A DNA stretch of 64,000 nt from Candidatus Pacearchaeota archaeon (GCA_038849525.1 JAWCMS010000001.1:206584-270583); one strand, 5' to 3'. Shown: positions 4,256 through 53,628, counted from the first letter of the stretch. The notes: generated by a model not told the origin, from the letters alone. Made by a program: numbers and translations.

Positions 4256-5388
4256 TGGGTGTTCTTAAAGAACTTAAAGAAACCGAAGAGAGAATGAAAA
4301 GAGAAGAGCAATATGAAAAGTTAAAACCATATCTTAAATTTTTTTTATGGCTTTTTTTGATAGTTGTTATTGGCGGAGCAATTTATTTGTTTTATATGTA
4401 TGTTCCTTCCTCATACAAAATTGTTTCAATCATTGTCATTCTAACATTCCTGTTTTTTTTCTTTTCCGCCCCAAAAGAAAAAAGGATATCTACTTTAATT
4501 TTAATGATAATTATAACTATTCTTATTATTATATTTATGCCACAAATAGAATTTTATACTTTTGAAGGATATTCCAAACTTTCTAATGTGTATAGAACTA
4601 TTGGTTCTCATGGTATCGGAGAAGGTTTATCTTGTATAATTAATGCTGAAAAATGTTTTGGAGAAGAGGCGTGGGAGACAAAAACAATGCAACAATTAGG
4701 GGGTAGTATGATCGAAGTTGACTGGAGCAATGCTATAAACAAACAACCATTGAATGTAATTGTCCCAATTAAGATTAGAACTAATGAATCTTTAGAACTG
4801 ATACCTACCTGCTTTTTAGGAGATACCAGAATTGAAACTTTTATTCCTACTGGAGATAGACTTAGATTTATAAGTTCAAATTATATACAAGAAAGTTCTG
4901 TTAGATGTTTTAGTGAAAATAATTTTTCAAATAAACTTGCATTAAAATTTGAAACTTCAATAATTAAAAAGAAATATTATTTTGAAATATGGACTGGAGA
5001 GGGGGCATCAAAAGGAACTATAAACAAAATTGAGTCAGGCCCTTATTCTTTAATAATAAAATCAGCAGATCCACAACCTTTTAGAGAAGGAAGATACCCT
5101 ATAACTCTTGAATTAAGAAAAACATCTGATTTTAATATCGCTAAAATAGAACTATTTAAAGTTGAAACAATTAGCAATAATATCCAAATTGAATGTGATT
5201 TTGATTTTGAAATGAATGCAGATAAAGAAAAATTAAAGCAGTGGCTTAAAGATAAAGATAACTACTTATTTACATGTTATTTGGATGTTGGAAGTACAAC
5301 TGATTTGAAAAAAGACTTTATATCTATTGATTTAAGATATGTTTTTGATGCAGAATATAAGACAATTTTAAAAACTCTTAGTGCTTAA
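4255..5388 (+). CDS. Membrane protein (3 N-terminal TM helices) with large extracytoplasmic domain, hypothetical
   Basis: ATGA start/stop overlap with the upstream gene. Hydrophobic N-terminal third, then a hydrophilic beta-rich domain. Confidence 0.6.
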   Translation: MGVLKELKETEERMKREEQYEKLKPYLKFFLWLFLIVVIGGAIYLFYMYVPSSYKIVSIIVILTFLFFFFSAPKEKRISTLILMIIITILIIIFMPQIEFYTFEGYSKLSNVYRTIGSHGIGEGLSCIINAEKCFGEEAWETKTMQQLGGSMIEVDWSNAINKQPLNVIVPIKIRTNESLELIPTCFLGDTRIETFIPTGDRLRFISSNYIQESSVRCFSENNFSNKLALKFETSIIKKKYYFEIWTGEGASKGTINKIESGPYSLIIKSADPQPFREGRYPITLELRKTSDFNIAKIELFKVETISNNIQIECDFDFEMNADKEKLKQWLKDKDNYLFTCYLDVGSTTDLKKDFISIDLRYVFDAEYKTILKTLSA

Positions 5389-5395
5389 TTAAAAT

Positions 5396-6253
5396 ATGAA
5401 TAAAAAAGAGATTTTAACAGCGGTTTTTTTAGTATTTATCCTAATAGTAATCTCAGGAGTTGAACAATGCCAACAAGGAATCGGTGGTGAGAAAACAAAG
5501 GCAGCGAAGTATGGGGTTGATTTTACACTTCAGCCAGGGCTTGATAGACTTACAGAAGGGAAGGTTATTATGCAGGGAGAAACTTTCTATGTTGATATAC
5601 TTATTGAAAATTTTGATTCCAAACCTAAATCAGGGGAGATTTGCATAAGAGATGATATTAATGAAGTTTATGGGGGAATTAATGATAAATGCAAGACTTT
5701 TAATATTCCAAGTGCAACTTATATCGAAAACAAACTTGAATCTCCAGCATCTATAAGAATTATATTCCCTGAAAATGATTATTATAAGTATGAAGGTATT
5801 CCTGTAGATACAGATGCAACACTTTTTGTTAGTATTTCTTATTTACAACATTCTATAATTTCTGGAGCAGTAAAAGCTCCAGAACCTCAGCAGGAGACTT
5901 TAACTTTGCAACAGACACCGTCTCCCGTATTTGTAACAGTCGATAAGTCTGTGACAAGCATGACTGATAATGTTAAGGTCAATCTAAAAATAGGATTCAC
6001 AAAACAAGGCGAATACAATATCACATCTACAGACTTCAAGAAAGAGGCGATAGTAGTCTTTCCAAAATTAAGTGTATATAACCTTGATTGTCCTGAAATA
6101 AAACAAGGGCTTATTGAATTTAGAAACACAAAATTTATAAGCTGTTCAGCCTTTTTACCTCGAGAACAATATACCCATCCATTACAGCTTACCTTAGATT
6201 ACGGGGTAAAATTAATCAAGTCTTTCGATTTCAAAATAAAAAAAAGTGAATAA
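5396..6253 (+). CDS. Membrane-anchored secreted protein, paralog of 6264..7145; possible lipobox-like Cys
   Basis: N-terminal TM/signal followed by ISGVEQCQQG. It shares the motif order (C-QQ ... GETFYVDILIEN vs GTEFPIYVDVLNAG) with the next gene. Confidence 0.6.
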   Translation: MNKKEILTAVFLVFILIVISGVEQCQQGIGGEKTKAAKYGVDFTLQPGLDRLTEGKVIMQGETFYVDILIENFDSKPKSGEICIRDDINEVYGGINDKCKTFNIPSATYIENKLESPASIRIIFPENDYYKYEGIPVDTDATLFVSISYLQHSIISGAVKAPEPQQETLTLQQTPSPVFVTVDKSVTSMTDNVKVNLKIGFTKQGEYNITSTDFKKEAIVVFPKLSVYNLDCPEIKQGLIEFRNTKFISCSAFLPREQYTHPLQLTLDYGVKLIKSFDFKIKKSE

Positions 6254-6263
6254 AAGAGGATAA

Positions 6264-7145
6264 ATGAAAACTCGCTTATTTATATTGTATTTGATTTCAA
6301 TAATTCTATTACTTATAGTTTTAAGTGGAATTAATGGATGCCCTCAACAACAACCAAAAATTTCAACCACTGGTTTGAAGATGTCATTTGTCAAGGATGC
6401 GCCACCAGTAAGCGTGATTACAGGAACCGAGTTTCCGATATATGTTGATGTACTAAATGCTGGAGGAGAGTTTGTTAACAAGGGAAGTGCTAAGTTCTAT
6501 TTAAGCAATTTGGGCCCAAATTTTGAAAATGTTAAAAGTTCTTTAATTAATGAAAAGACATTAGGAAAAGAATCTGTTTTTCCTGAACGTTTGGTTTTTG
6601 CAGAAAAAGCAAAGTTTACTTTCCCTCTGCAAGATATGTTAGTGGTTCCTCTTGTACTAACAGGATGCTATGATTACAGCGGAAGAGCGCAAGCTTCGGT
6701 GTGTATTACTGGAAGCAATGAAAGCAAAGTGTGTAAAATAGATGGAGAAAAAATAATAAGCAATACAGCTGGCCCTATTCAAATAACAAGTGTAACTGAA
6801 TCTATAAGCAGAAATAAATTGATTTTGATATTTGAAGTAGCAAACAAAGGTAATGGACAAGTATATTTAGCCGATGCAGATTGTGACAAACTTGAAGCAA
6901 GGGATATTACCGAGAGCCAAAAACAAGGTAAGCTAAATATTAAGATAACTACAAAAGATAATTTCAAATGTAAACTTCAATCATCTAGCGGACAAGTAGA
7001 TGGCTTAGAAGGAATAGCCCCATTAGGTAAAATAATCTGCGAGAAGGACATATCTAAAGAAGATTATCTTTCTGTTTTTATTATCGAAACTAGATATAAA
7101 TATAGAGATTCGATAATCCAAAATATAAATATAATGCCTGCATAA
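6264..7145 (+). CDS. Membrane-anchored secreted protein, paralog of 5396..6253; possible lipobox-like Cys
   Basis: N-terminal TM/signal followed by LSGINGCPQQQ. The body contains many Cys residues and is similar to the upstream gene. Confidence 0.6.
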   Translation: MKTRLFILYLISIILLLIVLSGINGCPQQQPKISTTGLKMSFVKDAPPVSVITGTEFPIYVDVLNAGGEFVNKGSAKFYLSNLGPNFENVKSSLINEKTLGKESVFPERLVFAEKAKFTFPLQDMLVVPLVLTGCYDYSGRAQASVCITGSNESKVCKIDGEKIISNTAGPIQITSVTESISRNKLILIFEVANKGNGQVYLADADCDKLEARDITESQKQGKLNIKITTKDNFKCKLQSSSGQVDGLEGIAPLGKIICEKDISKEDYLSVFIIETRYKYRDSIIQNINIMPA

Positions 7146-10633: not shown

Positions 10634-11023
10634 TCAATACTGCCAATCTTTTGAGAGAATACCTTTTCTTTTATAATACGCTGCAAGTTTTCTAATCTTG
10701 GCTTCTGTTATAAGTAATCCCCTTCCTGCTATTTTATCCTGTTTGTTTATTGAAATATGTTTTTTTAATATTTCAGCTTTTTTCATTAAGTTTTGTAAAT
10801 CTTCCGGAATCGATAATTTTATTTTATTTTCTTTAAGAATCGTCTTAATTTTTTTTCCTGTTGTCATTTTAACAGAAGGTATTCCATAAGTGTCTTTTAA
10901 TACCTGTCCAATTTTTGTTGGAGGCATTCCTTGTTGAGCAAGTTTTATAATTATTTCATTAATTTCTTTCTTATTTAATTTTACATTTTCTATTTTTTCT
11001 TTAGTAATTTTTTTATTCACCAT
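10634..11023 (-). CDS. rps15: 30S ribosomal protein S15 (uS15/S13e)
   Basis: C-terminal KQDKIAGRGLLITEAKIRKLAAYYKRKGILSKDWQY matches the uS15 helix region. Confidence 0.85.
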   Translation of the reverse strand: MVNKKITKEKIENVKLNKKEINEIIIKLAQQGMPPTKIGQVLKDTYGIPSVKMTTGKKIKTILKENKIKLSIPEDLQNLMKKAEILKKHISINKQDKIAGRGLLITEAKIRKLAAYYKRKGILSKDWQY

Positions 11024-11080: not shown

Positions 11081-12748
11081 CTATTTAAAACATATATTCT
11101 TGCTACTATTGTCTAATTCAAGCATTATTTTCCATTTAGAGTTATTTTTGATGGCATTGCATTGTTTAAGGAAAAACGATTCTTGTATGAGCGAATAATT
11201 TGAAACTGAAGACTGGCCTGTATGATATACAAATAATAATTTTCTATTATATTTTTTAGATATGTCTTTTAATAGATTTATCTGATCTAGAGTATTAAGA
11301 GGTTCTATATAAAAAACGCCTTGATTTTTATTGCCATATAATGCTTGATAACGATACATCCCCCATTCAGTGATTACATAAAAATAATTTTCTGCTAAGT
11401 ATGGATCATATAACAATTTATTTATGTTTAAATCGACTAAGTCTTTAGCCATTTGTCTTTTAGGGGGGTTATCATGATCTATAAGATGCTGATTTTGAAA
11501 TGAAAAAAAGAAATAACAGTTTACTATCATAAACAAAATTAGCCAAATAGCCATAATTTTGTTAAAATTAATCTTGAAAAAAATAATATCTGTTTCTTTA
11601 AAGGTTTTAACAGCTGTTAAAAAACTTAGAATAAGAAATGGATAAGCCATTACAGCGTGATGCTCCCAAGCAGCTTTTGTCCATATAATGATAATTACAG
11701 TAAAAATAAACAAGGCAAAAAAGATTATTGATTTTAATATCTGTGTTTTAGATTTTTTCTTTAATACTAAAATTAACCATAATAAAGGGATTGATAAATA
11801 GATAAATATATCATAAACATAAACAAAATAAGAAGGAGATTCAACCATATAAATCTCTTTGGTTGATAAGAAAGGATTTATTAGCGCTTGAAATACCGGC
11901 GAATTTATAATATAATTCTTTACATCAAGCATTTCATTAATCGAATAAACTTTAGAATTATCGCTAGATATGAGGGTATAAAGATATGGTTTATTGTTTA
12001 AGTCAAATGATAAGAATAACAAACTTAATAATCCAAGCAATAAAATTAAAGCATAAAATAATTGAATAACTATTTTTTTTAAATTATTTTTTTTGATTAT
12101 TCTCTTTTTATTTTCAATACATTGTGTAATGAAAAGGATTATCAATGATGGTATAAACCATACAAAAGTCAAATTTGTCCATATTCCTAAAAATATAACA
12201 ACAGAAGCAAGTAAAAGATATGTTATTTTAAATTTTTCATTCCATTTTATAAATAAATAAACAATTAAAAATACTGCAGTTATCTGAAATCCGGCAAGCC
12301 CTGGATCAACAATATGTTTAAAAAAATAAGGAAAAAATAAAATAAGACCTGAAAAAATATATCTTGTTTTAATTTTGAATATAGTGCTTAGAATTAATGA
12401 TTGAATAACCAAAAATATTATTCCTAAAAATCTTGCAGAAACAGGACTTTTCCATATCAAAAATAAAGGCAAGTAGTATAACGATGGAAGACTACCCATA
12501 TAAAAATATGTTCTTAAAGGTAACATTAGCCCGGTGTTTAAAAAATTAAGAAAATAAGCAGTACATCCTTCATTGAATATGTTTAAGTAATTATACTTAT
12601 ATGCATAGCAAGTAATTAAATGATACGCAGCAAATTCATCCATGTTATAAGGGACAAAAATAGAAAAAATTATTACTAAAATTAAACCTAAAAATAATAA
12701 TAGCAATATTTCAAAATATTTGTTTTTATAAACTTCACTTAAATTCAT
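11081..12748 (-). CDS. GT-C fold membrane glycosyltransferase, ArnT/PMT_2-like (paralog 1)
   Basis: Protein with at least 12 TM helices and an acidic motif in the first loop (YNMDEFAAYHL, like DE..RY of ArnT/PMT). It has a C-terminal soluble domain and lies in the glycosylation island. Confidence 0.55.
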   Translation of the reverse strand: MNLSEVYKNKYFEILLLLFLGLILVIIFSIFVPYNMDEFAAYHLITCYAYKYNYLNIFNEGCTAYFLNFLNTGLMLPLRTYFYMGSLPSLYYLPLFLIWKSPVSARFLGIIFLVIQSLILSTIFKIKTRYIFSGLILFFPYFFKHIVDPGLAGFQITAVFLIVYLFIKWNEKFKITYLLLASVVIFLGIWTNLTFVWFIPSLIILFITQCIENKKRIIKKNNLKKIVIQLFYALILLLGLLSLLFLSFDLNNKPYLYTLISSDNSKVYSINEMLDVKNYIINSPVFQALINPFLSTKEIYMVESPSYFVYVYDIFIYLSIPLLWLILVLKKKSKTQILKSIIFFALFIFTVIIIIWTKAAWEHHAVMAYPFLILSFLTAVKTFKETDIIFFKINFNKIMAIWLILFMIVNCYFFFSFQNQHLIDHDNPPKRQMAKDLVDLNINKLLYDPYLAENYFYVITEWGMYRYQALYGNKNQGVFYIEPLNTLDQINLLKDISKKYNRKLLFVYHTGQSSVSNYSLIQESFFLKQCNAIKNNSKWKIMLELDNSSKNICFK

Positions 12749-12758
12749 GCTATTTTCA

Positions 12759-12857
12759 TAGCCCTACTCGGATTCGAACCGAGGTCCCAACCTTTCTTCT
12801 TTAGAACGCTTTCGCGTATCCAAAGGGTTGTATCCTTGACCGCTGGACGATAGGGCT
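12759..12857 (-). tRNA. tRNA-Gln: tRNA-Gln(TTG) with about 25-nt intron at 37/38
   Basis: Manual fold: acceptor AGCCCTA/TAGGGCT, D-stem GTCC/GGAT, anticodon stem CAACC/GGTTG with loop CTTTGGA (anticodon TTG) interrupted after the loop by ACGCGAAAGCG..., T-arm CTCGG-TTCGAAT-CCGAG. Confidence 0.7.
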
Positions 12858-12875
12858 ATGATTCTTTATTTGTTT

Positions 12876-13631
12876 TTAAGATTTATAAACTAAACTGCTT
12901 TTTCTTTTATTATATTCTAATATGTGATTAAAAACAACATTTAATATTCCTAAACCATATTTAAATGATTCGAGAAAAGAGATTTTATGGGATTCAGGTC
13001 CATAGTATGTTGGGATAGTGATTTCTTTTATTAACTTCTTTTTTAATATAATTTGAGATACAATTTGTTGGTCAAATACATAACTATCTGAATTTTTATT
13101 AAAATCTATTTCTTTTAAAATATGGCAATCATATGCTCTAAATCCTGAATGATACTCTGAAAGATTTAATCCAAAAGCAATATTTTCAATAAAAGTTAAT
13201 AATCTATTGAAGATATACCTCCATAAAGGCATCCCATTCTTAAGAGGGTTTCCTTTTATTCTTGAACCTAAAACCATTGAAGCATGTTTTTTTTCAATTA
13301 ATTCAGAGAGTTTGTCGACCATTTGGGCAGGATACTGGTCATCTCCGTGAAGCATAATCACTATATCAAATCCATTTTTTATACAGTAGTTATAAGCTTT
13401 CTTCTGATTTCCTCCGTAACCAAGATTTTTTTTATTTTTTATGACTTTAATTTTCGAGATATTATTTTTTATTTTATATTTAATGGCATTTTCATAAGTT
13501 TTATCATTACTGGCATCGTCAATTACTAATATTTCATGAACTTTTTTAAAAAAATGTTTTGGAATTTTATCAAGAACTTTTTGTATTGTCCTCTCAGCAT
13601 AATAACATGGAATAAAAAGGCATATCTTCAT
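12876..13631 (-). CDS. GT2 family glycosyltransferase (dolichol-phosphate sugar synthase-like)
   Basis: CLFIPCYYAE...ILVIDDASNDKT...GYGGNQKKAY fits the GT-A DxD architecture of DPM/DPG synthase-like enzymes. Confidence 0.75.
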   Translation of the reverse strand: MKICLFIPCYYAERTIQKVLDKIPKHFFKKVHEILVIDDASNDKTYENAIKYKIKNNISKIKVIKNKKNLGYGGNQKKAYNYCIKNGFDIVIMLHGDDQYPAQMVDKLSELIEKKHASMVLGSRIKGNPLKNGMPLWRYIFNRLLTFIENIAFGLNLSEYHSGFRAYDCHILKEIDFNKNSDSYVFDQQIVSQIILKKKLIKEITIPTYYGPESHKISFLESFKYGLGILNVVFNHILEYNKRKSSLVYKS

Positions 13632-13663
13632 TTTGTTTAAAGTTAAGATACCTATAAAAAGTT

Positions 13664-15313
13664 TTATACGCTAATTAAATCATTTCTTAGATAAACATAT
13701 GCATACCAAGGTAGTACTGTTCTTGTACCCCCATCAAAACTTTTTGAAAGGCTCATATTTGGAATATTGCTCATAGTTTTATAATAGTCAGGAATGACTA
13801 CTGCTGCTTCTGCTTGGCTTAGCTTTGTTGAGTTTATATACATTTTAGGCAATTCATAATTATATGTCCAATCTCTTATAAAATTACTTTCATCGCCAAG
13901 ATTTCCACCATAAACTATATCTTTATAACAATAAAGGTCAAATATAACTACCAAGGGCTCTGGATTATATTTTTGTCCAAGAAATATAGGATTGGCTTCA
14001 GTTTCTTCAGCAGTAAAAGAAGAAGTATAAACTGCAACTGTTTTAACATTGTCTAATTTATTTAAATATTGTGCAGCTTTTAGAAGATTGCTATCTCCTG
14101 CATTTTTTATTAAAGGAACAAACCCAAATAATGAGATGATAAGTCCAGAAAATAATATTAGAAGAACAGTATATTTTGCAAGATTTTTTTTATTTTTGAA
14201 TATTTTAAATATCATAAATCCTGAAATAATAGCAATAGCAGGTGTAGCGGGAATATAATACCTAAACATCGTATCATGATATGCAACTAAAAAAATTGGC
14301 AGAGCTGGAATTAAAATCCAAGAATATAAAATTAAACATTCTTTTTTCTTTATAAAAAATATGCCTGGAAGTATCAGTAGAAATACAGGGCCTATTTGAA
14401 AAATAATTGCAAGTAGACCTTTTCCAGAGGCAGCAGCATTAAAACTACCTGCATATAATGCATATCTTCCAATATCAATTATTTTTTGTAAATTAAAAAG
14501 AATAATCATAATAACTATTGTTATTAGTAAAATTATTGCTATCAATAACTTTTTGTTCTTAATTCTAAATAAGGTCATGATTAGTAATGGTGGAACAAAA
14601 AACATTGCAGTATGCATTTTTGTTAGTACCGATAAAATCGCTAAAATTGTCAAAAGTAGAAACCAATGAACTTTTTTTTTCTCAAATGCAATTATACTTA
14701 TATAAAGTGATAATGTAACAAAGAAACATGCTGGGATATCTACAAGTGCAAGTCCTATCCAAGCTATTACACCATGCATGCTAGTGAAAATTAATGCTGC
14801 ATAGGTTCCAACAACTTTATTAAATAGCTTTTTTGCTATCAAAAAAGTAAGAAACACAATTGATGAGTAAAGAAGTGAATTAAATGCTTCTATAATAATA
14901 AGAGATTCTCCAAATATAGTATATAGTATTTTATAAATTATCGGAATTAAAGGCATATCCGTTCCTCTATTCCCTACATTTACATTTAAATCTTTTGCGT
15001 GAGTGAGATATCTAGCAGAGTCTGGATCTATCTGAGGACTATTCCAAAAAAAAGTTGTAATCAAAAATGAAAATAAAAAAATCACAATCATTAATTTTTT
15101 TTCGTTGATCTTTTCAATATTAATTTTTTTTGAAATTAAATATGCACAAATTGCAAGAGGTATTAGAATAATGATAAATTTTACAAAACTTAATTTAATT
15201 ATGTTTAAACTAAACAAGATAGTTATATCCAAATTTGAAAATTTGAAAAGTAGAAAATAAGCTACAACTAAAATAATAGATATCAATGTATAATACAATA
15301 TTTCTTTTTTCAT
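13664..15313 (-). CDS. GT-C fold membrane glycosyltransferase, ArnT/PMT_2-like (paralog 2)
   Basis: Many TM helices. The first-loop motif IDPDSARYLTHA resembles the DExRY(A) signature of ArnT/PMT_2. A C-terminal soluble domain is present. Confidence 0.6.
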   Translation of the reverse strand: MKKEILYYTLISIILVVAYFLLFKFSNLDITILFSLNIIKLSFVKFIIILIPLAICAYLISKKINIEKINEKKLMIVIFLFSFLITTFFWNSPQIDPDSARYLTHAKDLNVNVGNRGTDMPLIPIIYKILYTIFGESLIIIEAFNSLLYSSIVFLTFLIAKKLFNKVVGTYAALIFTSMHGVIAWIGLALVDIPACFFVTLSLYISIIAFEKKKVHWFLLLTILAILSVLTKMHTAMFFVPPLLIMTLFRIKNKKLLIAIILLITIVIMIILFNLQKIIDIGRYALYAGSFNAAASGKGLLAIIFQIGPVFLLILPGIFFIKKKECLILYSWILIPALPIFLVAYHDTMFRYYIPATPAIAIISGFMIFKIFKNKKNLAKYTVLLILFSGLIISLFGFVPLIKNAGDSNLLKAAQYLNKLDNVKTVAVYTSSFTAEETEANPIFLGQKYNPEPLVVIFDLYCYKDIVYGGNLGDESNFIRDWTYNYELPKMYINSTKLSQAEAAVVIPDYYKTMSNIPNMSLSKSFDGGTRTVLPWYAYVYLRNDLISV

Positions 15314-15356
15314 ATTGATTCTTATAGCATATAAATAAAAATACTTTTAAATTTTT

Positions 15357-16832
15357 TTATAAAAGTTCTATAATAAGAGCAATTATATCTATTATATACA
15401 GTATTATTAATATTATTAATATAAAATAAAGAATAAATGTGAATATTTTATTATCTATCTTTTTCTCAATTTTTTCAAACCCTTTAGTAAATAGTGCAAG
15501 AAATGCAAGCATACCTGGTAATATATATTCTATTCTCATACATCCAAAATCCCTATATATTGCAGTGAAATAAATTATAAATATAATATAAAAGAGAACT
15601 ATTATTAAAAATAATTCTGAGTTATTTGTATCAAGAGAATTATTTCTTATTTTTCTGATGTAATCTATAATAGCAGAGATAAATCCAAATATAAATATAA
15701 ATAACGGGATTAATGCTAAAATAAAAATTGTTCTACTTATGTTTAGTATCCATGGTTTAAAAGTTTCCCATGAATGTGGCCAACTTGCAAATTGTATCAC
15801 ATTCAATCTTCCATAAAGCTGAGTCCATAGCGATGTTCTATGTAGTTGCATAGGTAGACGATGATGCGTTATTTTTGGTTCTTTTATTAATTCAAATATT
15901 CTAAAAGTAAAATAAGAATCTATAATTGAGGTTACACCGGCTCGGTAATGCAGAATATAAAAACTTTTTGTAGGACCACTATCATTTTTATCAGGGTTTA
16001 GATATGAAAATACTTGGGGGTTTATGATTATTTTATAAGCTGAAGAATAATCTATTTCTTTTGGTAGAGGGTAGGGGGGCATATTCGTTACAAATGCATT
16101 TTTATAATGCTTGAAAGAATAATAATATTCTCCTAAAAATGGAACAGTAATAAAGATAAGAATAACAAAGAAAATTAAGAATTTTATTAAAGATCTGCGA
16201 TATTTTCTATTATGGAGGGTAATTATTTTTATAAAAAATATTACAATAAAACTTAAAAACAAAGGTACAGCGGTTCCTTTTGTTATAATCGCTAATATAA
16301 GTGATACCGTCGCAGGTATAAAATGTTTTATTTTTAAAGAAATTATGAATAAATAAAAGAAATATGTTGCAATACAAGAAAATAATATTGCTAAAGAATC
16401 ATTTGTTGCTTGTATATTAACAGCTATAAGCCCAGGATTAAAGGCGGTTAAAGCAAGAATTATTAATTTTATTTTTTTATTTGAAGTAATTTTATTTAAA
16501 AATAAGTATACTATTAATATAGTTAACATCCCCGCAATTACATTAACCATCTGTGCAATAGTTATCATGTCTTTAGGATTGACTAAGAATAATTTAAATA
16601 TGGTTGCACATAGCAGATGGTAAAATTTTGGCTGAAAGCATTCCCAACAATCTGTTAGATGTGGGATTATGTTTTTATAAAGTATAATATATATAATTTG
16701 CATATGGTCGTCATTACTTTCTTGATTTAGAAATCCTAAAAATACTCTCAAAGTAAGAGCAATTAAGAAGATAATAATTATAAATACAGTGTAAAAATTT
16801 ATTTTATTTTTTTTGAGCATTTTATCTAACAA
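15357..16832 (-). CDS. GT-C fold membrane glycosyltransferase-like protein (paralog 3)
   Basis: Polytopic membrane protein with acidic first-loop residues (ESNDDHMQIIY) and a topology similar to the two neighbours. Confidence 0.5.
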   Translation of the reverse strand: MLDKMLKKNKINFYTVFIIIIFLIALTLRVFLGFLNQESNDDHMQIIYIILYKNIIPHLTDCWECFQPKFYHLLCATIFKLFLVNPKDMITIAQMVNVIAGMLTILIVYLFLNKITSNKKIKLIILALTAFNPGLIAVNIQATNDSLAILFSCIATYFFYLFIISLKIKHFIPATVSLILAIITKGTAVPLFLSFIVIFFIKIITLHNRKYRRSLIKFLIFFVILIFITVPFLGEYYYSFKHYKNAFVTNMPPYPLPKEIDYSSAYKIIINPQVFSYLNPDKNDSGPTKSFYILHYRAGVTSIIDSYFTFRIFELIKEPKITHHRLPMQLHRTSLWTQLYGRLNVIQFASWPHSWETFKPWILNISRTIFILALIPLFIFIFGFISAIIDYIRKIRNNSLDTNNSELFLIIVLFYIIFIIYFTAIYRDFGCMRIEYILPGMLAFLALFTKGFEKIEKKIDNKIFTFILYFILIILIILYIIDIIALIIELL

Positions 16833-16907
16833 GATATAATATACTTTTAAATATTTTTAAGAACCATTAAGTTAACTTTATATATTTGTTAAATAACAAA
16901 ATAAAAT

Positions 16908-17594
16908 ATGAATAATTTTAGATTTTACATACAATCTGAATCAACTAGTTTTTTTAGATATTGTATTGAACAATTTTTATTTTTTCTTTTTTCATGGATT
17001 CCAGGGTTTTTGGGAATTGGATTGAGAGGGTTGTTCTATAAAATAATTATAAAATCTGATGGCCTACCGAAAATAGAAGATAGGGTAAGAATAAGACATT
17101 CAAAAGGCCTTAAATTAGGGAAAAATGTTTATATTGGCGATGGAGTTTATTTACATGCGATGCCTAATGGCATTAAAATAGGCGATGAAACAATAATTCT
17201 GCATAATTCAGAATTACATGTTTTTAATTATAGGAATTTGAAAAATTCTAAAATTAATATTGGAAAAAATTGTTTTATTGGAGAATATTGTATAATGCGG
17301 GGACAAGGCGGTATAGAAATTGGGAATAATGTTCTAATTGCACCGCGAGTTTCGATTCTTGCGGTTAATCATGACTACAATGATCTAGAACAAAATTGGA
17401 GAGTTGGAAAAATAATTGGGAAAGGAATAATAATTAAAGATAATGCGTGGCTTGGGGCCGGTTCTATTATTCTTGATGGAGTAACAATTGGCAAAAATGC
17501 TGTTATTGGGGCCGGTTCTGTTGTAACAAAAGATGTACCAGATAATACATTAGTTGGGGGAATTCCTGCAAAGGTTATTAAAAAGTTAAGATGA
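16908..17594 (+). CDS. Left-handed beta-helix (hexapeptide repeat) sugar O-acetyltransferase, WcaF/WbbJ-like
   Basis: Tandem hexapeptide repeats ([19 protein letters not shown]...[31 protein letters not shown]) and an N-terminal hydrophobic segment. Confidence 0.8.
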
Positions 17595-18277
17595 AACATA
17601 TATATAATCAATTGAAAGAACTTACTATAATAATTCCAGTATACAATGAAGAAAGAGGAATTATAAATACTATCAATGAAATAAAAAAAGGATGCCCTAA
17701 TGCAAAAATTCTTGTAGTTAATGATGGTAGTACTGACAAAACTTCTATTATTCTTAAAAAAATCAAAAATATTAGTGTAGTAAATCATAAGACTAATAGA
17801 GGATATGGGGCCGCATTAAAAACAGGCATTATAAATGCTAAAACGAAATATATAGCATTTATTGATGCAGATGATACATATCCTCCAATTTACATTCCTG
17901 TCCTTTTGAATAAATTAATAAAACACAATCTTGATTGTGTGTGGGCCAATAGATTTGTAAGTGGAAACAGTATGCCATTGATACGAAAAATAGGAAATAA
18001 AATAATTATTCTGTTTTTTTTAATAATTACCGGAAAAAAAGTACAAGATGTTTCAAGTGGTGAAAGAGTATTCAAAAAAGATGCGTTTGATAAAATTGAT
18101 TTTATGTCTATTCCCAATGGATTGGATACAATAAGTGCATTAACAAAAAGAATAGTTTCACGAGGATTAAAATATAAAGAAGTTCCTATAGAATATCATA
18201 AAAGAGTAGGCAATTCAAAATTGAAGATATTTAGAGATGGTTATTTGATGATGAAGAATATTCTACTAGAAAAATAA
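17591..18277 (+). CDS. GT2 family glycosyltransferase (Dol-P-glucose/mannose synthase-like)
   Basis: [12 protein letters not shown]...[11 protein letters not shown]...[11 protein letters not shown]...[14 protein letters not shown] overlap with the upstream acetyltransferase. Confidence 0.8.
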
Positions 18278-19696
18278 TCATTTTTTGTTAGTCCATATTA
18301 TATGTTTTATCATGTTTTTAATAAAATATCTTATATTGTAAGGATTTATTGCATATTTTGCTAATTGTATTATAACTGATGGTCTTGCATACCATTGCAT
18401 ATAAGCCCATTTTGTAGCTTTTATAATTTCTTTAGCCGACATATGTGGATAGCTTATAGCAGTAGATTCATTCATATCAAATTCTTCCCAATTTTCATTA
18501 ATCAGCCATTTATTTTTTTTAGCTTGCCTATTAAATTCTGTTCCTGCATATGGAACTGCAATATGCCAAAGAGTTAGTTCCATCTTTAATTTTTTAGCTA
18601 TATTTACAGTTTCTTTAACTGTGTCCCATGTTTCGCCAGGAAGTCCTATAATAAAATATCCCCAAACTTTTATTCCTGCATTGTTTATTATTCTAACTGC
18701 ATTTTTTATTTGTTCTATAGTGATACCTTTTTTTACATTATTTAATATTTGTTGATTACAGCTTTCTATACCTAGTGCAATCATAAAACAACCAGCTTTT
18801 TTCATCCAATAAAGCATCTCTTCATTTAAAGTATCGACTCTACTATTACATGCCCACCGCACTTTTAATCCAGAATTAACAATTAGTTTACAAAGTTTTA
18901 TTACCATCTCTCTATTTTGAGTAAATAAATCAGATTGGAATAAAATATTATTAACCCCAAGATTATGTAAAACTTTTATTTCTTTTAAGATTCTCTCTGG
19001 AGATTTGTGTCTTACTGTTCCTTTCCACATTGATTTTTGTATACAGAATGTACATGAATTAGGACAACCTCTATTTGATAATAGCCAGACATATTTCTTG
19101 CCAATTATTGGCATTCTATATTTGTTAAGAGGTAATAATTTGTAAATTGGAATTGGTAGATCATCAAGATTTTTGATAAATGGCCTTTCAGGATTAATTT
19201 TTATTTTATTATTTTTTTTATATGCTATTCCCTTTATTTTAGCTACGCTTTTCTTTTTATCGAGAGTTTCTATCAGTTCTTTCAATGTCAGTTCTGGTTC
19301 ACCAATAATAATAAAATCGAGAGAAGGAAATTTTATTAAAGTATCTTTGATAACAGCATTACTATGAGTTCCTATCGAGATTGTTATTGCACCAAACTTT
19401 TTTGCTATCTTTACACCATACATATCATTTGTTAAAGTTGGTGCTGTTACATGTGTTATGTAATATTTTGGCTTGTTTTTTTTAAGATATTCTTCAAATT
19501 TGTCCCATTTTATATTTTCAGCAATACAATCAATAATACCTACTTTAAATTTAGGATAGACCATTGCAGCAAGTTGGGCAAGGCTTGTTTGTGGCCATAT
19601 CATATTTTCTCTGCTTTTCCTACCAACTCGACAGATGTCTCTAATATATATATCATCATTAGGGGATGGCGGATTAACAAATAAGATGTCTATCAT
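18278..19696 (-). CDS. B12-binding domain radical SAM protein (class B)
   Basis: N-terminal cobalamin-binding-like domain followed by a radical SAM CxxxCxxC motif (CPNSCTFC). Size about 470 aa. Confidence 0.8.
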   Translation of the reverse strand: MIDILFVNPPSPNDDIYIRDICRVGRKSRENMIWPQTSLAQLAAMVYPKFKVGIIDCIAENIKWDKFEEYLKKNKPKYYITHVTAPTLTNDMYGVKIAKKFGAITISIGTHSNAVIKDTLIKFPSLDFIIIGEPELTLKELIETLDKKKSVAKIKGIAYKKNNKIKINPERPFIKNLDDLPIPIYKLLPLNKYRMPIIGKKYVWLLSNRGCPNSCTFCIQKSMWKGTVRHKSPERILKEIKVLHNLGVNNILFQSDLFTQNREMVIKLCKLIVNSGLKVRWACNSRVDTLNEEMLYWMKKAGCFMIALGIESCNQQILNNVKKGITIEQIKNAVRIINNAGIKVWGYFIIGLPGETWDTVKETVNIAKKLKMELTLWHIAVPYAGTEFNRQAKKNKWLINENWEEFDMNESTAISYPHMSAKEIIKATKWAYMQWYARPSVIIQLAKYAINPYNIRYFIKNMIKHIIWTNKK

Positions 19697-19776
19697 TTTA
19701 CATAAATTTACATAATTCTATTTAAAAATTTGTTTTTTCGATAATATTATAAATAAAATTATTATTATAAATAAAA

Positions 19777-20982
19777 ATGATAAATTACAAAAAAAGTATC
19801 ATAATATTAGTTATTATATTTTTCTTAATTTTATTTCTATTTTTGAAAAATTCAGTTAATTATCATATTCAGTGCGATGTTTTAACTGAAAAAATCTGTG
19901 CAGACGTTCATGAACCAGTAAATTTAAATGAAATTTTTAATAAAAAAGAAAACAATTCACATAGCCCACAAATCGCTATAGATTCTAAGGGTAATCCATA
20001 TGTAGTTTATTATCAAGGATTTGCATATTATGATGGAAAAAAATGGATAGAAAAAAATATCACTGATTTATGGGTTCCTGATATTGCAATTGCCAGCGAT
20101 GATTCTATTCATGTAGTATATAATCTTTGGGGAAGGATAACAAATTATATCAATTCATTTGATAAAGGCGAAAGTTGGGGGAATCATGTTGTATTGCATC
20201 CAAATTACGGATATTGGGCTAATATTTTTATTGATAAAAATGACACCATCCATGTTGTGTGGGGAAGAGATAGTTTAGATAACAATTTGGATACTGTCTT
20301 TTATTCTAGATCTTCTGATTTTGGAAAAACATGGTTTAATTCTTCAATTTTAATGGGTTCAAATGAACCAAAAGTTGCTGTTGATAATTTAGGATACATT
20401 CATGTTGTAGTAGGCAATCAAGTTTGTGCAGACCAAGGAATAAATGGTGACTTTTGGTGTGGCGTCAGTTATTCAAGATCTACTGATGGGGGATTGACAT
20501 GGTCCACTCCTTGGAATTTTGATTCAGATGCCTTACCAGGCAACAAATCAGGGCATCCTCACGTTGCTGCTGATAGCAAAGGAAATGTCTACATAGTATG
20601 GTCTCAAAATAATAATTTGTTTTATAGAATTTCTAAAGATAATGGAAAAACATGGTCAAAGGAAAAGAAAATACCTTTTAAAGGATATGCTTTTTTTACA
20701 GAAATAGTTGTAGATGAAAATGATAATTTACATGCAGTCTGGGCTGACGGCGGAGGGGTTGATGCAAATGAGTTTAATGGAAGGGGCATATTCTATTCGA
20801 TCTATGATGGTAATAAATGGACCAATCCAATAGTAATTTCTAATCCAAATGTAAGTGCTTATAGACCGGGGATAGCTATAAACAAAAATAAAATAGGGAT
20901 TGTGTGGGCTGGAGGCGGAGGGCACCCTATAAATGACGAAAATGTTTTTTTCAATTCAATAGATATTTTACAAATAAAATAA
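19777..20982 (+). CDS. BNR/Asp-box repeat beta-propeller protein (sialidase-like), membrane-anchored
   Basis: N-terminal TM anchor. Repeated blades each ending in a hydrophobic-His-VVW motif (IHVVYN, IHVVWG, IHVVVG, VYIVWS, LHAVWA, IGIVWA). Four Asp-box SxDxGxTW motifs (DKGESWG, SSDFGKTW, STDGGLTW, SKDNGKTW). Confidence 0.75.
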   Translation: MINYKKSIIILVIIFFLILFLFLKNSVNYHIQCDVLTEKICADVHEPVNLNEIFNKKENNSHSPQIAIDSKGNPYVVYYQGFAYYDGKKWIEKNITDLWVPDIAIASDDSIHVVYNLWGRITNYINSFDKGESWGNHVVLHPNYGYWANIFIDKNDTIHVVWGRDSLDNNLDTVFYSRSSDFGKTWFNSSILMGSNEPKVAVDNLGYIHVVVGNQVCADQGINGDFWCGVSYSRSTDGGLTWSTPWNFDSDALPGNKSGHPHVAADSKGNVYIVWSQNNNLFYRISKDNGKTWSKEKKIPFKGYAFFTEIVVDENDNLHAVWADGGGVDANEFNGRGIFYSIYDGNKWTNPIVISNPNVSAYRPGIAINKNKIGIVWAGGGGHPINDENVFFNSIDILQIK

Positions 20983-21003: not shown

Positions 21004-21669
21004 TTAAACAATCATTGGCTGTTTTCCATTAAATTTGCCTTTATATCTTCCTCTTGATTCAACTTTTTTTAATTGTTCGAGAACTCCTAAACTTCCCACT
21101 TTTCTATAACCTTCGATAACCGCTGCAAACAAATCTTGCCAATTTTTAAAATGTCTGCTTTCTAGGGCCTGTCTTAACAAATGTAAATCTACAGCTTTGT
21201 CTTCTATTCTTGCCGATTGAAAACCTAATCCAAAATCTATAAAATAAATCTTATCATTTTTTAGTATTATATTAGAAGTTGTCAAGTCGCCATGAATTAT
21301 GTGATTATTATGAAGCTCTGCTATCTGTTCTCCAAGTTGATAGCAGATTTTTATCTGTTTTTTTAATGGTAGTCTATCTAAATTTTCAGATAATTTTTTA
21401 CCTTCGACATATTGCATTTCAATTTCTGTATTTTTTATCGAAAGAACTTTTGGAACATTTACTAATTTACTGGCTTTTTCGAGAAGTTTTGCTTCTCTTC
21501 TAGTTCTTTGAGTTCTAATTTTTTTATCAAGTTGTGGATGCCGATAGCCTTTTGTGATCCTCTTCTTTTTCAAAATTTTATTTTCTTTTATTAGAAGAGC
21601 TTCAGCACCACAAGCAATTATTTTTCTCATTATTAGAATGTAATTAGTAATTAATTCCTTTTTTTGCAA
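21004..21669 (-). CDS. bud32: KEOPS complex kinase Bud32 (PRPK)
   Basis: Small RIO-type kinase: GAEALLIK..., catalytic HGDLTTSNIIL and DFGLG motifs, about 220 aa. Confidence 0.8.
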   Translation of the reverse strand: MQKKELITNYILIMRKIIACGAEALLIKENKILKKKRITKGYRHPQLDKKIRTQRTRREAKLLEKASKLVNVPKVLSIKNTEIEMQYVEGKKLSENLDRLPLKKQIKICYQLGEQIAELHNNHIIHGDLTTSNIILKNDKIYFIDFGLGFQSARIEDKAVDLHLLRQALESRHFKNWQDLFAAVIEGYRKVGSLGVLEQLKKVESRGRYKGKFNGKQPMIV

Positions 21670-22150
21670 TCATCTTCTTTGGCATTTTCAATGCCTTAAT
21701 TTCATTAACATAGTCTGCAATCGAAATAAGCTTTTTTGAAGCATATCTCCCTGTAAGAACAATATCTGTTTTTGGGTGTTTTTTTTGATAATTTTTAATT
21801 TTATTTATGAAGTAATCTTCATCAAGAAGGTTCCATGCTACTGCCAATACAGACTCGTCAAGAATAAGTAAATCTGTTTTAAATTCTTCAGCATCTTTTA
21901 TTACAAATTCTAATCCCGCTCTTGAAATTTCTTTATCTTCTAAAGTAAGATTTTTTTTACCTTTCCAACCTTTTCTTCCAAGTTGAATTATCTTATAATT
22001 TTTATTTTTAAATTTGTACTCCCCTGTATTCTTCCAGTATTTCATGAATTGGGCAATATAAACTCTATGACCTTGCCCTAAAGAACGCAAAGCCAACCCT
22101 AATGCACTTGTTGTTTTTCCTGCTCCTGTTCCAGTATAAAGATATATCAT
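21644..22150 (-). CDS. cobO: ATP:cob(I)alamin adenosyltransferase (CobA/CobO family)
   Basis: P-loop YTGTGAGKTTSALGLALR...VYIAQFMK, LILDE and LTGR motifs as in CobO/BtuR. Its 5' end overlaps bud32 by 26 nt. Confidence 0.75.
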   Translation of the reverse strand: MIYLYTGTGAGKTTSALGLALRSLGQGHRVYIAQFMKYWKNTGEYKFKNKNYKIIQLGRKGWKGKKNLTLEDKEISRAGLEFVIKDAEEFKTDLLILDESVLAVAWNLLDEDYFINKIKNYQKKHPKTDIVLTGRYASKKLISIADYVNEIKALKMPKKMIAKKGINY

Positions 22151-22205: not shown

Positions 22206-24173
22206 TTATAACGGACATATTCCTTTAGGGCAACTTTGTGCAAATTGCGATTTGGCTATTAATCCTTCAGCGCCTTTATATAAAACTTGTTTTTCTTTGC
22301 TGCCATACCTATAAATTGTAATTCCTTTACATTTCAATTTCCATGCAAGTAAATAAATTTTTTTAATATCTTCCTTTGTTGCTGTCTGTGGGAGATTCAC
22401 TGTTTTACTTACTGCATTGTCTACATATTTTTGAAATACAGCTTGCATTTTTACATGCTGCTCAGGAGGGATCTCTAAAGCTGTAACAAATATTTTTTTA
22501 ATATCATTTGGAAGATTTGTTTCTTTTAAGGTCCCAGTTCTTATTATTTTCTTTATTATTTTCTCATTCCATAAATTTCTTTTAATTAGCTCATTTTGGA
22601 AAATTGGATTGATTTCAACTAATTTTTTGTTTTCAAGTACTTCTCTATAAAAAGCAAGAGCAAATAATGGTTCTATTCCTGAACTGCAACCAGCTATTAT
22701 TGAAATTGTTCCTGTTGGAGCAATTGTAAGCATAGTTGTATTTCTTTTTGATTTCTTTTTCGCTTCTTTCTTGATGAAAGATATGATCTTTTTGGCTAAT
22801 TTAAATGACTCTTCTGAACCATAAGGAATTTTCATTAATAAAAGCATATCTGCGAAACCCATTATTCCCAATCCTATTTTGCGGTTTTTTTTAGTTATTT
22901 TTTCTATTTCAGGTAGAGGATATTTATTTTTGTCAATTACATTATTAAGAAAAGAAACTCCTAAATGTGTAAGTTCTTTTAACTTATTCCAATCTATTAC
23001 TATCTTTCTTTTGACTTTTTTTAATACTTTTACTAAATTTATGCTTCCTAAATTACATGATTCATAAGGTAGCAAAGGAACTTCGCCGCATGGATTAGTA
23101 GCTTCTATTTTTTCTTTCAAAGGATTTTTTCTATTTATTTCATCAATGAATATTAACCCTGGATCACCTGTTTGCCAAGCATTCTCAACAATTAAATCAA
23201 AGAGTTGTTTTGCATTTATTTTTTTAACAACCTTATGGTTTCTTGGATTAATCAAATTGAAATTTTTATTTTTTTCAACTTTTTTAAGAAAATCATCTGT
23301 TACTGCAACTGAAATATTAAAATTACTTAGTTTCTTATCTTGTTTTGACATTATAAATTCAATAATGTCAGGATGATTGATATTTAATATCCCCATATTT
23401 GCACCTCTTCTTTTTCCCCCTTGTTTAATCGTTTCAGTAGTTGCATCATAAATTTTCATAAATGACACTGGACCACTTGCGATACCTTTTGTTGATTTTA
23501 CTATGTCTCCTTTAGGCCTTATTTTTGAAAAGCTAAAACCTGTCCCTCCTCCGCTTTGCTGTATTCTCACCATGTTATTGAGAGTCTTAAAGATACTTTC
23601 GAGAGAATCTTCTATAGGCAATACAAAGCAAGCAGACAATTGTCCAATTTTTGTGCCCGCATTCATTAATGTCGGGGAATTGGGCAAAAATTCAAGATTT
23701 TTCATCGCATTAAAAAATTTTTTCTTTTCCTTTTGATTATTCCCAATAAAATTCGCAACTCTTTTGAACATTTCTGTAGGAGTTTCGATTATATTTCCAT
23801 TGTTATCTTTCAATAAATAACGTTCTTCAAGAACTTTTAAAGCATTAACTGAGAGCTTTAAATCATCTTTGATTTTAAAATACTCTTTGATTTCTCTTGC
23901 ATGCCCTCTTGAACGCCTATATAAAGAATATACTTTAAATAATCTTGAATCATGTTTTTCAAGAACTTGTTCAACAATATCTTGGATTTCTTCTACCGAA
24001 GGAATTTCGATACCTTTAGCTTCAAGTTCAGAAATTACTTCATTTGTAAAAAGTTTGGATTTTTTTCTGTCTAAAGCATCAATAGCTTTTTGAGCTTTTT
24101 CTATTGCATTTTGAATTCTTTCAGCTTTAAAAGGTACCACCTCTCCTGTCCTCTTTATTACCTCTTTTATCAT
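22206..24173 (-). CDS. nrdJ: Class II (adenosylcobalamin-dependent) ribonucleotide reductase NrdJ with N-terminal ATP-cone
   Basis: ATP-cone at the N-terminus (VIKRTGEVVPFKAERIQNAI). Active-site NPCGE motif typical of class II enzymes. C-terminal redox Cys pair (CPKGICPL). Confidence 0.85.
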   Translation of the reverse strand: MIKEVIKRTGEVVPFKAERIQNAIEKAQKAIDALDRKKSKLFTNEVISELEAKGIEIPSVEEIQDIVEQVLEKHDSRLFKVYSLYRRSRGHAREIKEYFKIKDDLKLSVNALKVLEERYLLKDNNGNIIETPTEMFKRVANFIGNNQKEKKKFFNAMKNLEFLPNSPTLMNAGTKIGQLSACFVLPIEDSLESIFKTLNNMVRIQQSGGGTGFSFSKIRPKGDIVKSTKGIASGPVSFMKIYDATTETIKQGGKRRGANMGILNINHPDIIEFIMSKQDKKLSNFNISVAVTDDFLKKVEKNKNFNLINPRNHKVVKKINAKQLFDLIVENAWQTGDPGLIFIDEINRKNPLKEKIEATNPCGEVPLLPYESCNLGSINLVKVLKKVKRKIVIDWNKLKELTHLGVSFLNNVIDKNKYPLPEIEKITKKNRKIGLGIMGFADMLLLMKIPYGSEESFKLAKKIISFIKKEAKKKSKRNTTMLTIAPTGTISIIAGCSSGIEPLFALAFYREVLENKKLVEINPIFQNELIKRNLWNEKIIKKIIRTGTLKETNLPNDIKKIFVTALEIPPEQHVKMQAVFQKYVDNAVSKTVNLPQTATKEDIKKIYLLAWKLKCKGITIYRYGSKEKQVLYKGAEGLIAKSQFAQSCPKGICPL

Positions 24174-30080: not shown

Positions 30081-30205
30081 AGCCTCCAGAGGGATTTGAA
30101 CCCTCGACCCTCGGTTGTTATGAAACAAGTTTCATGAACAAAAAAATTTAATTTGTTTTCTTGTCTTTACAAAACCGATGCTCTAAACCGCTGAGCTATG
30201 GAGGC
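30081..30205 (-). tRNA. tRNA-Thr: tRNA-Thr(TGT) with about 52-nt intron at canonical position
   Basis: Exons GCCTCCATAGCTCAGCGGTTTAGAGCATCGGTTTTGTAA / ACCGAGGGTCGAGGGTTCAAATCCCTCTGGAGGCT. The intervening AGACAAG...CATGAAACTTGTTTCATAACA contains a hairpin consistent with a BHB substrate. Confidence 0.75.
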
Positions 30206-53511: not shown

Positions 53512-53520
53512 TTTTATAAA

Positions 53521-53628
53521 CGGGCCTGGTAGGATTCGAACCCACGACCCTCTGCTTTCTTATTCCATTTTCAGCCGATTAGAAGGCAGATGCTCTATCC
53601 AGGCTGAGCTACAGGCCCATTTTTTAAA
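53521..53628 (-). tRNA. tRNA-Arg: tRNA-Arg(TCT) with about 24-nt intron
   Basis: Exons GGGCCTGTAGCTCAGCCTGGATAGAGCATCTGCCTTCTAA / GCAGAGGGTCGTGGGTTCGAATCCTACCAGGCCCG. Intron TCGGCTGAAAATGGAATAAGAAA after the anticodon loop. Confidence 0.75.

Follow-up and report, generated by a model that had tools for sequence, protein, structure and literature searches.

A lineage-specific island of putative surface-glycosylation genes around a resident tRNA-Gln gene in a Candidatus Pacearchaeota archaeon

The window analyzed here is a 64-kb part of a contig that spans 400 kb or more, from a metagenome-assembled genome of Candidatus Pacearchaeota, which belong to the DPANN archaea. Positions 11081-20982 of the window hold eight protein genes and an intron-bearing tRNA-Gln(UUG), and this segment is a lineage-specific island of about 10 kb which, as we argue below, probably directs the glycosylation of the cell surface. 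The protein genes are named A to H. Three of them encode membrane proteins of the glycosyltransferase C (GT-C) type and two encode glycosyltransferases of family 2 (GT2), and together with the genes at the two borders they are as follows:

10634-11023, minus strand: ribosomal protein S15, left flank, followed by RecJ/DHH and eIF2-alpha
11081-12748, minus strand: gene A, 555 amino acids (aa), polytopic membrane protein with a GT-C fold and without a Pfam model
12759-12857, minus strand: tRNA-Gln(UUG), 99 nt including a 26-nt intron, found by a local Rfam search
12876-13631, minus strand: gene B, 251 aa, soluble GT2, polyprenyl-phosphate sugar synthase-like
13664-15313, minus strand: gene C, 549 aa, PMT_2-type GT-C with a C-terminal soluble domain
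15357-16820, minus strand: gene D, 487 aa, PMT_2-type GT-C
16908-17594, plus strand: gene E, 228 aa, hexapeptide left-handed beta-helix (LbH) acyltransferase of the WcaF/WbbJ type
17591-18277, plus strand: gene F, 228 aa, soluble GT2, polyprenyl-phosphate sugar synthase-like
18278-19696, minus strand: gene G, 472 aa, class-B-like radical S-adenosylmethionine (SAM) enzyme
19777-20982, plus strand: gene H, 401 aa, membrane-anchored BNR/Asp-box beta-propeller
21004-21669, minus strand: Bud32/RIO-type kinase, right flank, assigned by Pfam

All genes of the island lie where an earlier sequence-only reading of the stretch had placed them, and Pfam and NCBIfam back the assignments. Gene A is identical to the NCBI protein with locus tag QW041_01385, and the region is also found in the Logan assembly of SRR27730043. 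The GC content is approximately 28-30%. Read from its ATG, gene D is 487 aa long in agreement with the NCBI protein, and open reading frame (ORF) calling lengthens it to a TTG at 16832. Genes D, C, B, the tRNA gene and gene A lie on one strand with 10-43 bp between neighbours, while E and F share 4 bp where E ends and F begins, and G meets F tail-to-tail. An ORF of 137 aa at 17375-17788 on the minus strand, antisense to the E/F junction, was dismissed as an artefact of the AT-rich sequence.

The membrane proteins A, C and D had been described as three ArnT/PMT-like GT-C paralogs. With respect to the enzyme class this is supported for C and D, which pass the PMT_2 gathering score: PF13231 is matched at 45.5 bits by C and at 38.0 bits by D (cut-off 26.1), PF02366 is barely passed by C (25.8 bits, cut-off 22.7) and is missed by D (22.1 bits), and the two go at NCBI under the name “glycosyltransferase family 39 protein”. 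A, on the other hand, has the fold of the class and no match to a sequence family, and the ArnT equivalog is absent from the NCBIfam matches of all three. The three loop motifs reported for these proteins do exist, each just past a transmembrane (TM) segment: DEFAAY at residue 37 of A, PDSARY at residue 97 of C and NDDHMQ at residue 36 of D. In C, with approximately 11 predicted TM segments, the sequence DPDSARY follows the third of them, and in D the motif follows TM1. A sequence search with C and D against the PDB chains gave no match, Pmt1, Pmt2 and Pmt4 included. As for paralogy, no significant pairwise (BLASTP) or profile similarity connects A, C and D, and hhalign gave a probability below 1% for A against C and D, ruling out close paralogy; judged by their sequences the three proteins are from three different families.

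Gene A deserves attention of its own. It encodes approximately 13 TM helices followed by a C-terminal alpha/beta domain of about 130 aa, and an AlphaFold2 (AF2) model built on the family alignment reached a predicted local distance difference test (pLDDT) value of 89.3 and a predicted TM-score (pTM) of 0.91. When this model was compared with the PDB by Foldseek, the best 31 matches were all GT-C enzymes (STT3/PglB/AglB, ArnT, EmbA/B/C, DPY19, ALG9, ALG3 and Pmt4) with E-values as low as 1.7e-5, the highest TM-score being that of ArnT (0.49/0.50). Right after TM1, in the first external loop, the residues D37-E38 are invariant in 23 family sequences, as would be expected of a GT-C catalytic loop. 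The fold match and the invariant D37-E38 therefore place A among the GT-C enzymes by fold, in a family that no Pfam model covers. The sole Pfam match of A is DUF6056 at 17.5 bits, below the cut-off of 27 bits, and NCBIfam gave none; neither A nor any of its 22 aligned homologs reaches the gathering score of a Pfam family. Of the Pfam families, TgpA_N alone recurs among the 23 members (three members, best E 1.4e-5), and none of the GT-C Pfam families is significant among them (PMT_2 is matched by one member at E 0.38).

At E<=1e-3, a profile search with the gene A family returned 756 cluster representatives (clustering at 50% identity), with members in DPANN archaea, in bacteria of the candidate phyla radiation (CPR; Saccharibacteria and Peribacteria) and in Poribacteria. 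In the fetched loci, homologs of A adjoin GT2 genes in L002, L007 and L009, and are found near PMT_2 or GtrA genes in L004-L007. A further gene seen repeatedly beside A homologs encodes an FAD amine-oxidase-like protein of about 500 aa (PF01593; L002 8390-9991, L004/L005 6481-9998, L006 2659-4860), and in L004/L005 the surroundings also hold GtrA and PMT_2 genes. This hints at another conserved partnership of the A family, one not represented in the window.

B and F, the two GT2 enzymes, share 30% sequence identity and match PF00535 at 77.8 and 114 bits, respectively. The best PDB match of B is the dolichyl-phosphate mannose synthase (DPMS) of P. furiosus (5mlz, E 4.5e-12), onto residues 23-226 of which residues 1-215 of B align, while residues 8-215 of F align to ArnC and residues 3-212 to the P. 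furiosus enzyme (PfDPMS). Among the NCBIfam models the best match of both is AglJ (TIGR04182; 66.6 bits for B and 112.7 bits for F, against a cut-off of 325). The haloarchaeal dolichyl-phosphate (Dol-P)-hexose transferase model comes second for F with 108.7 bits and gives 37.9 bits for B (cut-off 375), and PpgS is also among the best families of both, far under its equivalog cut-off. The DXD motif is D92-A-D94 in F, and in B it reads G96-D-D, keeping the equivalents of D91 and Q93 of PfDPMS. Bacterial orthologs of F combine the catalytic domain with two to four predicted C-terminal hydrophobic segments, which is the architecture of DPMS, GtrB and ArnC. As the whole catalytic domain of both proteins aligns with PfDPMS, and that of F also with ArnC, and as the best NCBIfam families are those just mentioned, the term “Dol-P-sugar synthase-like” used for B and F by the sequence-only reading is a fair description.

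Next to F lie the acyltransferase gene E and the radical SAM gene G. E matches the Hexapep family at 71.4 bits and the WcaF family at 94 bits, and shares a hydrophobic N-terminal segment with its orthologs. G matches Radical_SAM at 107 bits, with the CX3CX2C motif present as CPNSCTFC at C211. Its best NCBIfam match is HpnJ (TIGR03471), over the full length, with 258.8 bits where the cut-off is 577.6; BchE is matched as well, to a lesser degree, and the best PDB match is AprD4 (E 1.2e-25). The affinity to HpnJ and AprD4 points to radical chemistry on a sugar, which may still be lipid-linked at this stage. The G family is large, with 3374 proteins at E<=1e-20; the 120 homologs listed are about 50% identical to G, and the few named ones are bacterial, plus one from Micrarchaeota. 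Six genomic contexts of G homologs were inspected, and all of them are glycan biosynthesis clusters, with Wzx, Wzm/Wzt, GT4 and chain-length regulators among their genes; hopanoid genes are absent. In six out of six, an F-like GT2 (97-141 bits to F) is encoded within three genes of the G homolog, and in L014 and L026 E-like (239-244 bits), F-like and G-like genes follow each other in this order, adjacent and co-directional. From this collinearity and the constant proximity of F and G we infer a cassette of E, F and G that makes and tailors one sugar, where G appears to be an integral partner of F and not an incidental neighbour. The F-G module, in many cases with E, recurs in glycan loci of both bacteria and archaea. 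A literature search brought up no characterized member of the G family and nothing specific on GT-C systems in DPANN archaea. Between 705 and 17416 of the bacterial locus L027, four B12-type and two SPASM radical SAM genes lie together with GT2 genes of DPMS size and one PMT_2 gene, an extreme case of radical-SAM-rich glycan tailoring.

The last gene of the island, H, is named “sialidase family protein” by NCBI and had been called sialidase-like, with a possible role in trimming or binding glycans. Both labels are due to the BNR repeats only. A TM segment at residues 7-25 anchors H in the membrane by its N-terminus; four Asp-boxes (S-x-D-x-G-x-x-W) at residues 127, 179, 235 and 286 and seven blade motifs follow from its sequence, and its AF2 model (pLDDT 84.4) is a seven-bladed propeller. 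The closest folds are the seven-bladed Photorhabdus lectins PLL/PHL with TMt values up to 0.69, compared with approximately 0.5 for sialidases. An alignment of 29 family sequences contains no invariant Arg, Tyr, Glu or Asp (only Gly and Ser are invariant), and no PDB sialidase was matched by sequence. A GH33 sialidase, with six blades, an Arg triad, a Tyr/Glu pair and an acid/base Asp, is thus contradicted by the fold, by the alignment and by the PDB search alike, and judging from the model a lectin-like or structural role at the surface is more likely. The best fold matches of H, the Photorhabdus PLL/PHL lectins and the GH145/PL42 propellers (TMt 0.63-0.69), bind or process carbohydrates, yet they are only about 14% identical to H, which differs from them by its BNR/Asp-box repeats and its N-terminal anchor.

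The surroundings of the island were compared with eight metagenomic loci (L017-L024) found with the flanking RecJ-like protein as probe at 45-74% identity, all of which keep the order S15, RecJ/DHH, eIF2-alpha. Four of the eight (L018, L021, L022 and L024) keep both flanks, and in each of these the order is Bud32, tRNA-Gln(UUG), S15, RecJ, eIF2-alpha with no glycosylation genes between Bud32 and S15, a gap of 0.4-2.5 kb. In L018, the closest relative with both flanks, the gap holds the tRNA gene alone. By this comparison the segment described here is an island of about 10 kb, specific to its lineage, inside a conserved housekeeping backbone of Bud32, tRNA-Gln, S15, RecJ and eIF2-alpha. In the window gene A sits between the tRNA gene and S15, and genes B to H sit between the tRNA gene and Bud32; since relatives have the tRNA gene without the island, the genes have accreted on both sides of a resident tRNA.

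The tRNA-Gln(UUG) itself, which had been reported between the first GT-C gene and a GT2 gene, is real (48.9 bits to the Rfam tRNA model, E 7e-10 in the local search), but rather than an embedded passenger it is an ancestral resident of the locus. It was overlooked by ARAGORN and by the whole-window Rfam gathering scan. Alignment with the four intronless orthologs at the same syntenic spot shows a clean insertion of 26 nt after G37, which is the canonical archaeal 37/38 site, and the intron has therefore been gained or retained in the lineage of the window only. In L024 a LAGLIDADG homing-endonuclease-like ORF of 314 aa (4846-5862) abuts the tRNA-Gln gene where the window has glycosylation genes, and an acyltransferase ORF is also nearby, which suggests that the locus is an insertion hot spot. 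The island resembles tRNA-associated genomic islands in that its genes lie beside a tRNA gene and are missing from syntenic relatives. It differs from them in several respects: the Pfam search found no integrase domain, the direct repeats present are AT-rich chance matches and intragenic repeats and none is att-like, the tRNA flanked by the genes is intact, and neither GC3 (the GC content of third codon positions) nor synonymous codon usage sets the island apart from the other parts of the window (p 0.40 and 0.96). Composition, proposed earlier as a check for horizontal transfer, accordingly gives no signal of it, and the lower total GC of the island is due to codon positions 1 and 2, that is, to the amino-acid composition of membrane proteins.

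It had also been claimed that the genes make up one coherent pathway. The whole block is missing from the syntenic relatives, so co-conservation in relatives fails at this level, and conservation of the entire island was also rejected in the other fetched loci. What does recur elsewhere are sub-modules, namely A with a GT2 and E-F-G.

Putting these results together, we give a probability of roughly 60% to the reading that the region is a lineage-specific surface-glycosylation island, combining polyprenyl-phosphate sugar synthases with tailoring enzymes and transfer by GT-C proteins. On the cytoplasmic face of the membrane the soluble GT2s B and F would move a monosaccharide from a nucleotide sugar to Dol-P. 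The sugar handled by F would be altered by G, for instance through C-methylation, deoxygenation or rearrangement, and would be O-acylated by the membrane-associated LbH acyltransferase E. The lipid-linked sugars would then be flipped by a flippase encoded outside the island and be used outside the membrane by A, C and D to decorate surface acceptors, candidates for which are S-layer or pilin proteins, an existing glycan, or lipids. H would be a membrane-anchored extracellular propeller, more likely a glycan binder or a surface component than a hydrolase of sialic acid. The domain and fold assignments, the recurring modules and the absence of the island from relatives are results of the analysis, whereas it is the donor lipid, the order of the steps, the chemistry of G and the acceptors that we infer in this scheme. 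The earlier statement that AglB/STT3 is absent holds for the scanned ORFs of the window, none of which has an STT3/AglB domain. The modification may be O- or lipid-glycosylation in preference to N-glycosylation, as the sequence-only reading suggested.

Several observations weigh against this scheme. Neither the island nor the rest of the window (scanned ORFs) encodes a flippase of the GtrA or Wzx type or a nucleotide-sugar enzyme, and a hydropathy scan predicted no C-terminal TM helix for B or F, and for B no TM helix at all, so that the anchor of the solved DPMS, GtrB and ArnC structures is absent from both. No island enzyme reaches an NCBIfam equivalog cut-off, and therefore no specificity for sugar, donor or acceptor can be assigned. 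C, D and H are without homologs in any of the fetched loci (12 around A homologs and 6 around G homologs), and because of this it is their adjacency that links them to the other island genes. With respect to G, the B12-binding domain PF02310, implied when the enzyme was called a B12-radical SAM protein, is below threshold (14.8 bits, cut-off 32.1, aligned over 12-120 of 121 positions), although it is called in many G homologs at about 50% identity, and to our knowledge AprD4, the nearest solved relative, is not cobalamin-dependent. Finally, the contexts of G homologs number six only, three of which are close kin, and in the window G converges on F and is not co-transcribed with it.

Within the same framework we tentatively put forward a more specific suggestion, which we hold to be possible rather than probable. 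The F-G pair, often joined by E, would be a conserved and widely transferred cassette for radical tailoring (a rearrangement of the HpnJ/AprD4 kind, deoxygenation or C-methylation) of a polyprenyl-phosphate monosaccharide before GT-C transfer, and gene A would found a new GT-C family of DPANN archaea, CPR bacteria and Poribacteria that uses such donors.

Other explanations must be weighed against the glycosylation island. It could be an accessory part of AglB-dependent N-glycosylation, in which B and F would load Dol-P with the first or the last sugar of an N-glycan in the manner of Haloferax AglJ/AglD, the GT-C proteins would, like AglS, add late sugars to a glycan transferred before, and AglB would be encoded elsewhere in the genome. 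The two best NCBIfam models of F and the best one of B come from such systems, and since the window covers 64 kb while the contig has 400 kb or more, there is room for AglB outside the window. We nevertheless find this reading unlikely, as 113 and 67 bits against 325 are far under the equivalog cut-off, as no AglB, flippase or further Agl-type gene appears among the scanned ORFs, and as absence from relatives would be unexpected of core N-glycosylation. Alternatively, unrelated neighbours could have piled up at an insertion hot spot without sharing a pathway. The block is indeed not kept together as a whole, no homologs of C, D and H accompany the A or G homologs of other loci, and the tRNA-Gln locus of L024 holds the LAGLIDADG ORF and the acyltransferase instead. 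However, all eight proteins are from glycan-related families, the A-GT2 and E-F-G sub-modules recur independently, and the genes are tightly spaced and co-directional, which makes a chance assembly quite unlikely.

The remaining alternatives concern single parts of the island. F and G, with or without E, might alter the head group of a membrane lipid: F would glycosylate a lipid alcohol, and G would contract the ring to an ether-linked cyclitol that resists hydrolysis, as in the case of HpnJ and calditol synthase. HpnJ is the top curated family for G over its full length, and both HpnJ and the calditol synthase Cds have been proposed to contract the rings of lipid-linked sugars (PMC13459092). 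That AprD4 also acts on a sugar would agree with this, as would the membrane segments in E and in the bacterial orthologs of F. We still judge it very unlikely: the score of G is well under the HpnJ cut-off, F shows no resemblance to HpnI in the 25 listed matches, out of 27, to NCBIfam, the contexts of the G family are polysaccharide loci and not loci of lipid synthesis, and DPANN archaea usually scavenge lipids instead of making them. As for gene A, it might be a highly divergent, minimal oligosaccharyltransferase that acts on proteins, in place of AglB or alongside it, in DPANN archaea, CPR bacteria and Poribacteria. Its seven best Foldseek matches by E-value are STT3 and PglB, an acidic residue at 148 is conserved in addition to the invariant D37-E38 of the first external loop, and a conserved (D/E)WG(M)Y in the C-terminal domain, soon after the last TM helix, loosely recalls the WWDYG motif. 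But the TM-scores of those matches are 0.38-0.46 as compared with 0.49/0.50 for ArnT, no family member carries an STT3 Pfam signal, (D/E)WGMY is not WWDYG and lies about 40 residues past the last helix, and the genes often seen next to the family are of the single-sugar GT2 and GtrA types, typical of monosaccharide donors on Dol-P or undecaprenyl phosphate. Such a function of A is in our view highly improbable.

The proposed surface-glycosylation island has several relatives among known systems. GtrA/GtrB/GtrC, ArnC/ArnT, CsbB/YfhO, the mycobacterial Ppm1/Pmt and Haloferax AglD/AglR/AglS likewise combine a DPMS-like GT2 with a polytopic GT-C protein carrying an acidic motif in its first external loop, and have in common the charging of a lipid carrier in the cytoplasm followed by transfer outside the membrane. 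In contrast to them the island has no flippase and its GT2s no membrane anchors, three GT-C proteins of three unrelated families stand against two GT2s, one of the GT2s is coupled to a radical SAM enzyme, and no protein reaches the score of a curated equivalog. The pairing of a GT2 with a class-B-like radical SAM enzyme is shared with HpnI/HpnK/HpnJ (hopanoid cyclitol ether) and Cds, enzymes working on lipid-linked sugars (PMC13459092). Of the curated families HpnJ comes closest to G, but G falls short of it by score (258.8 versus 577.6 bits), genes for hopanoid or tetraether lipids are missing from the vicinity, F resembles DPMS and not HpnI, and the homologs are found in polysaccharide loci. 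AprD4 (PDB 6fd2), which as a radical SAM diol-dehydratase works on the sugar of an aminoglycoside, is the best solved relative of G and has a sugar substrate in common with the chemistry suggested here. Only the radical SAM core (residues 171-400) aligns, however, and AprD4 serves antibiotic biosynthesis with a reductase partner that is absent here.

DPANN archaea live attached to a host, and surface glycans are probably central to this contact, while their synthesis is hardly known. The locus described here is a strain- or lineage-variable glycosylation island assembled from modules that are shared with CPR and other bacteria. Since the scheme of Dol-P-sugar synthases and GT-C enzymes is well established, the island extends this picture and does not overturn it; what is newer about it is a GT-C family that Pfam does not model, together with an uncharacterized GT2-radical SAM cassette. 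Both offer targets for further study, the family of gene A with its hundreds of clusters at 50% identity, and the very large and highly conserved radical SAM family of G, found beside a DPMS-like GT2 in glycan loci in all six contexts. If the tentative reading of the F-G-E cassette is true, unusual surface sugars would be made by a route not described before, common to many bacterial phyla and DPANN archaea.

Some further features of the window may be mentioned. Beyond the Bud32/RIO-type kinase lie two genes connected with corrinoids:

21644-22150, minus strand: CobA/BtuR ATP:corrinoid adenosyltransferase, beside NrdJ
22206-24173, minus strand: class II adenosylcobalamin-dependent ribonucleotide reductase (RNR) NrdJ, 705 bits against a cut-off of 400

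CobA/BtuR was considered as a member of the island serving G, but its presence is better explained by the neighbouring class II NrdJ. None of the eight related loci yielded CobA, and in L018 the gap between the RNR and Bud32 genes is only about 400 bp. CobA and NrdJ together show corrinoid use or salvage in a reduced DPANN genome.

The tRNA-Gln is accompanied in the window by two other long tRNAs, both probably intron-containing: one of 125 nt at 30081-30205 on the minus strand (58.9 bits to Rfam), overlooked by ARAGORN, and one at 53520-53619 on the minus strand, miscalled by ARAGORN as '???' with a 4-base anticodon. The latter is adjoined by a gene for the tRNA-splicing ligase RtcB (51358-52785, minus strand), and a tRNase Z-like metallo-beta-lactamase is encoded at 39088-39978. 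A type IV prepilin peptidase gene at 1051-1836 lies upstream of four consecutive ORFs of 285-377 aa at 3167-7145 on the plus strand, which have no Pfam match and a GC fraction of about 0.25. Finally, two adjacent large ORFs at 30304-37112 on the plus strand, of 634 aa (no Pfam match) and 1635 aa, possibly encode large surface proteins that would be candidate acceptors for glycosylation.

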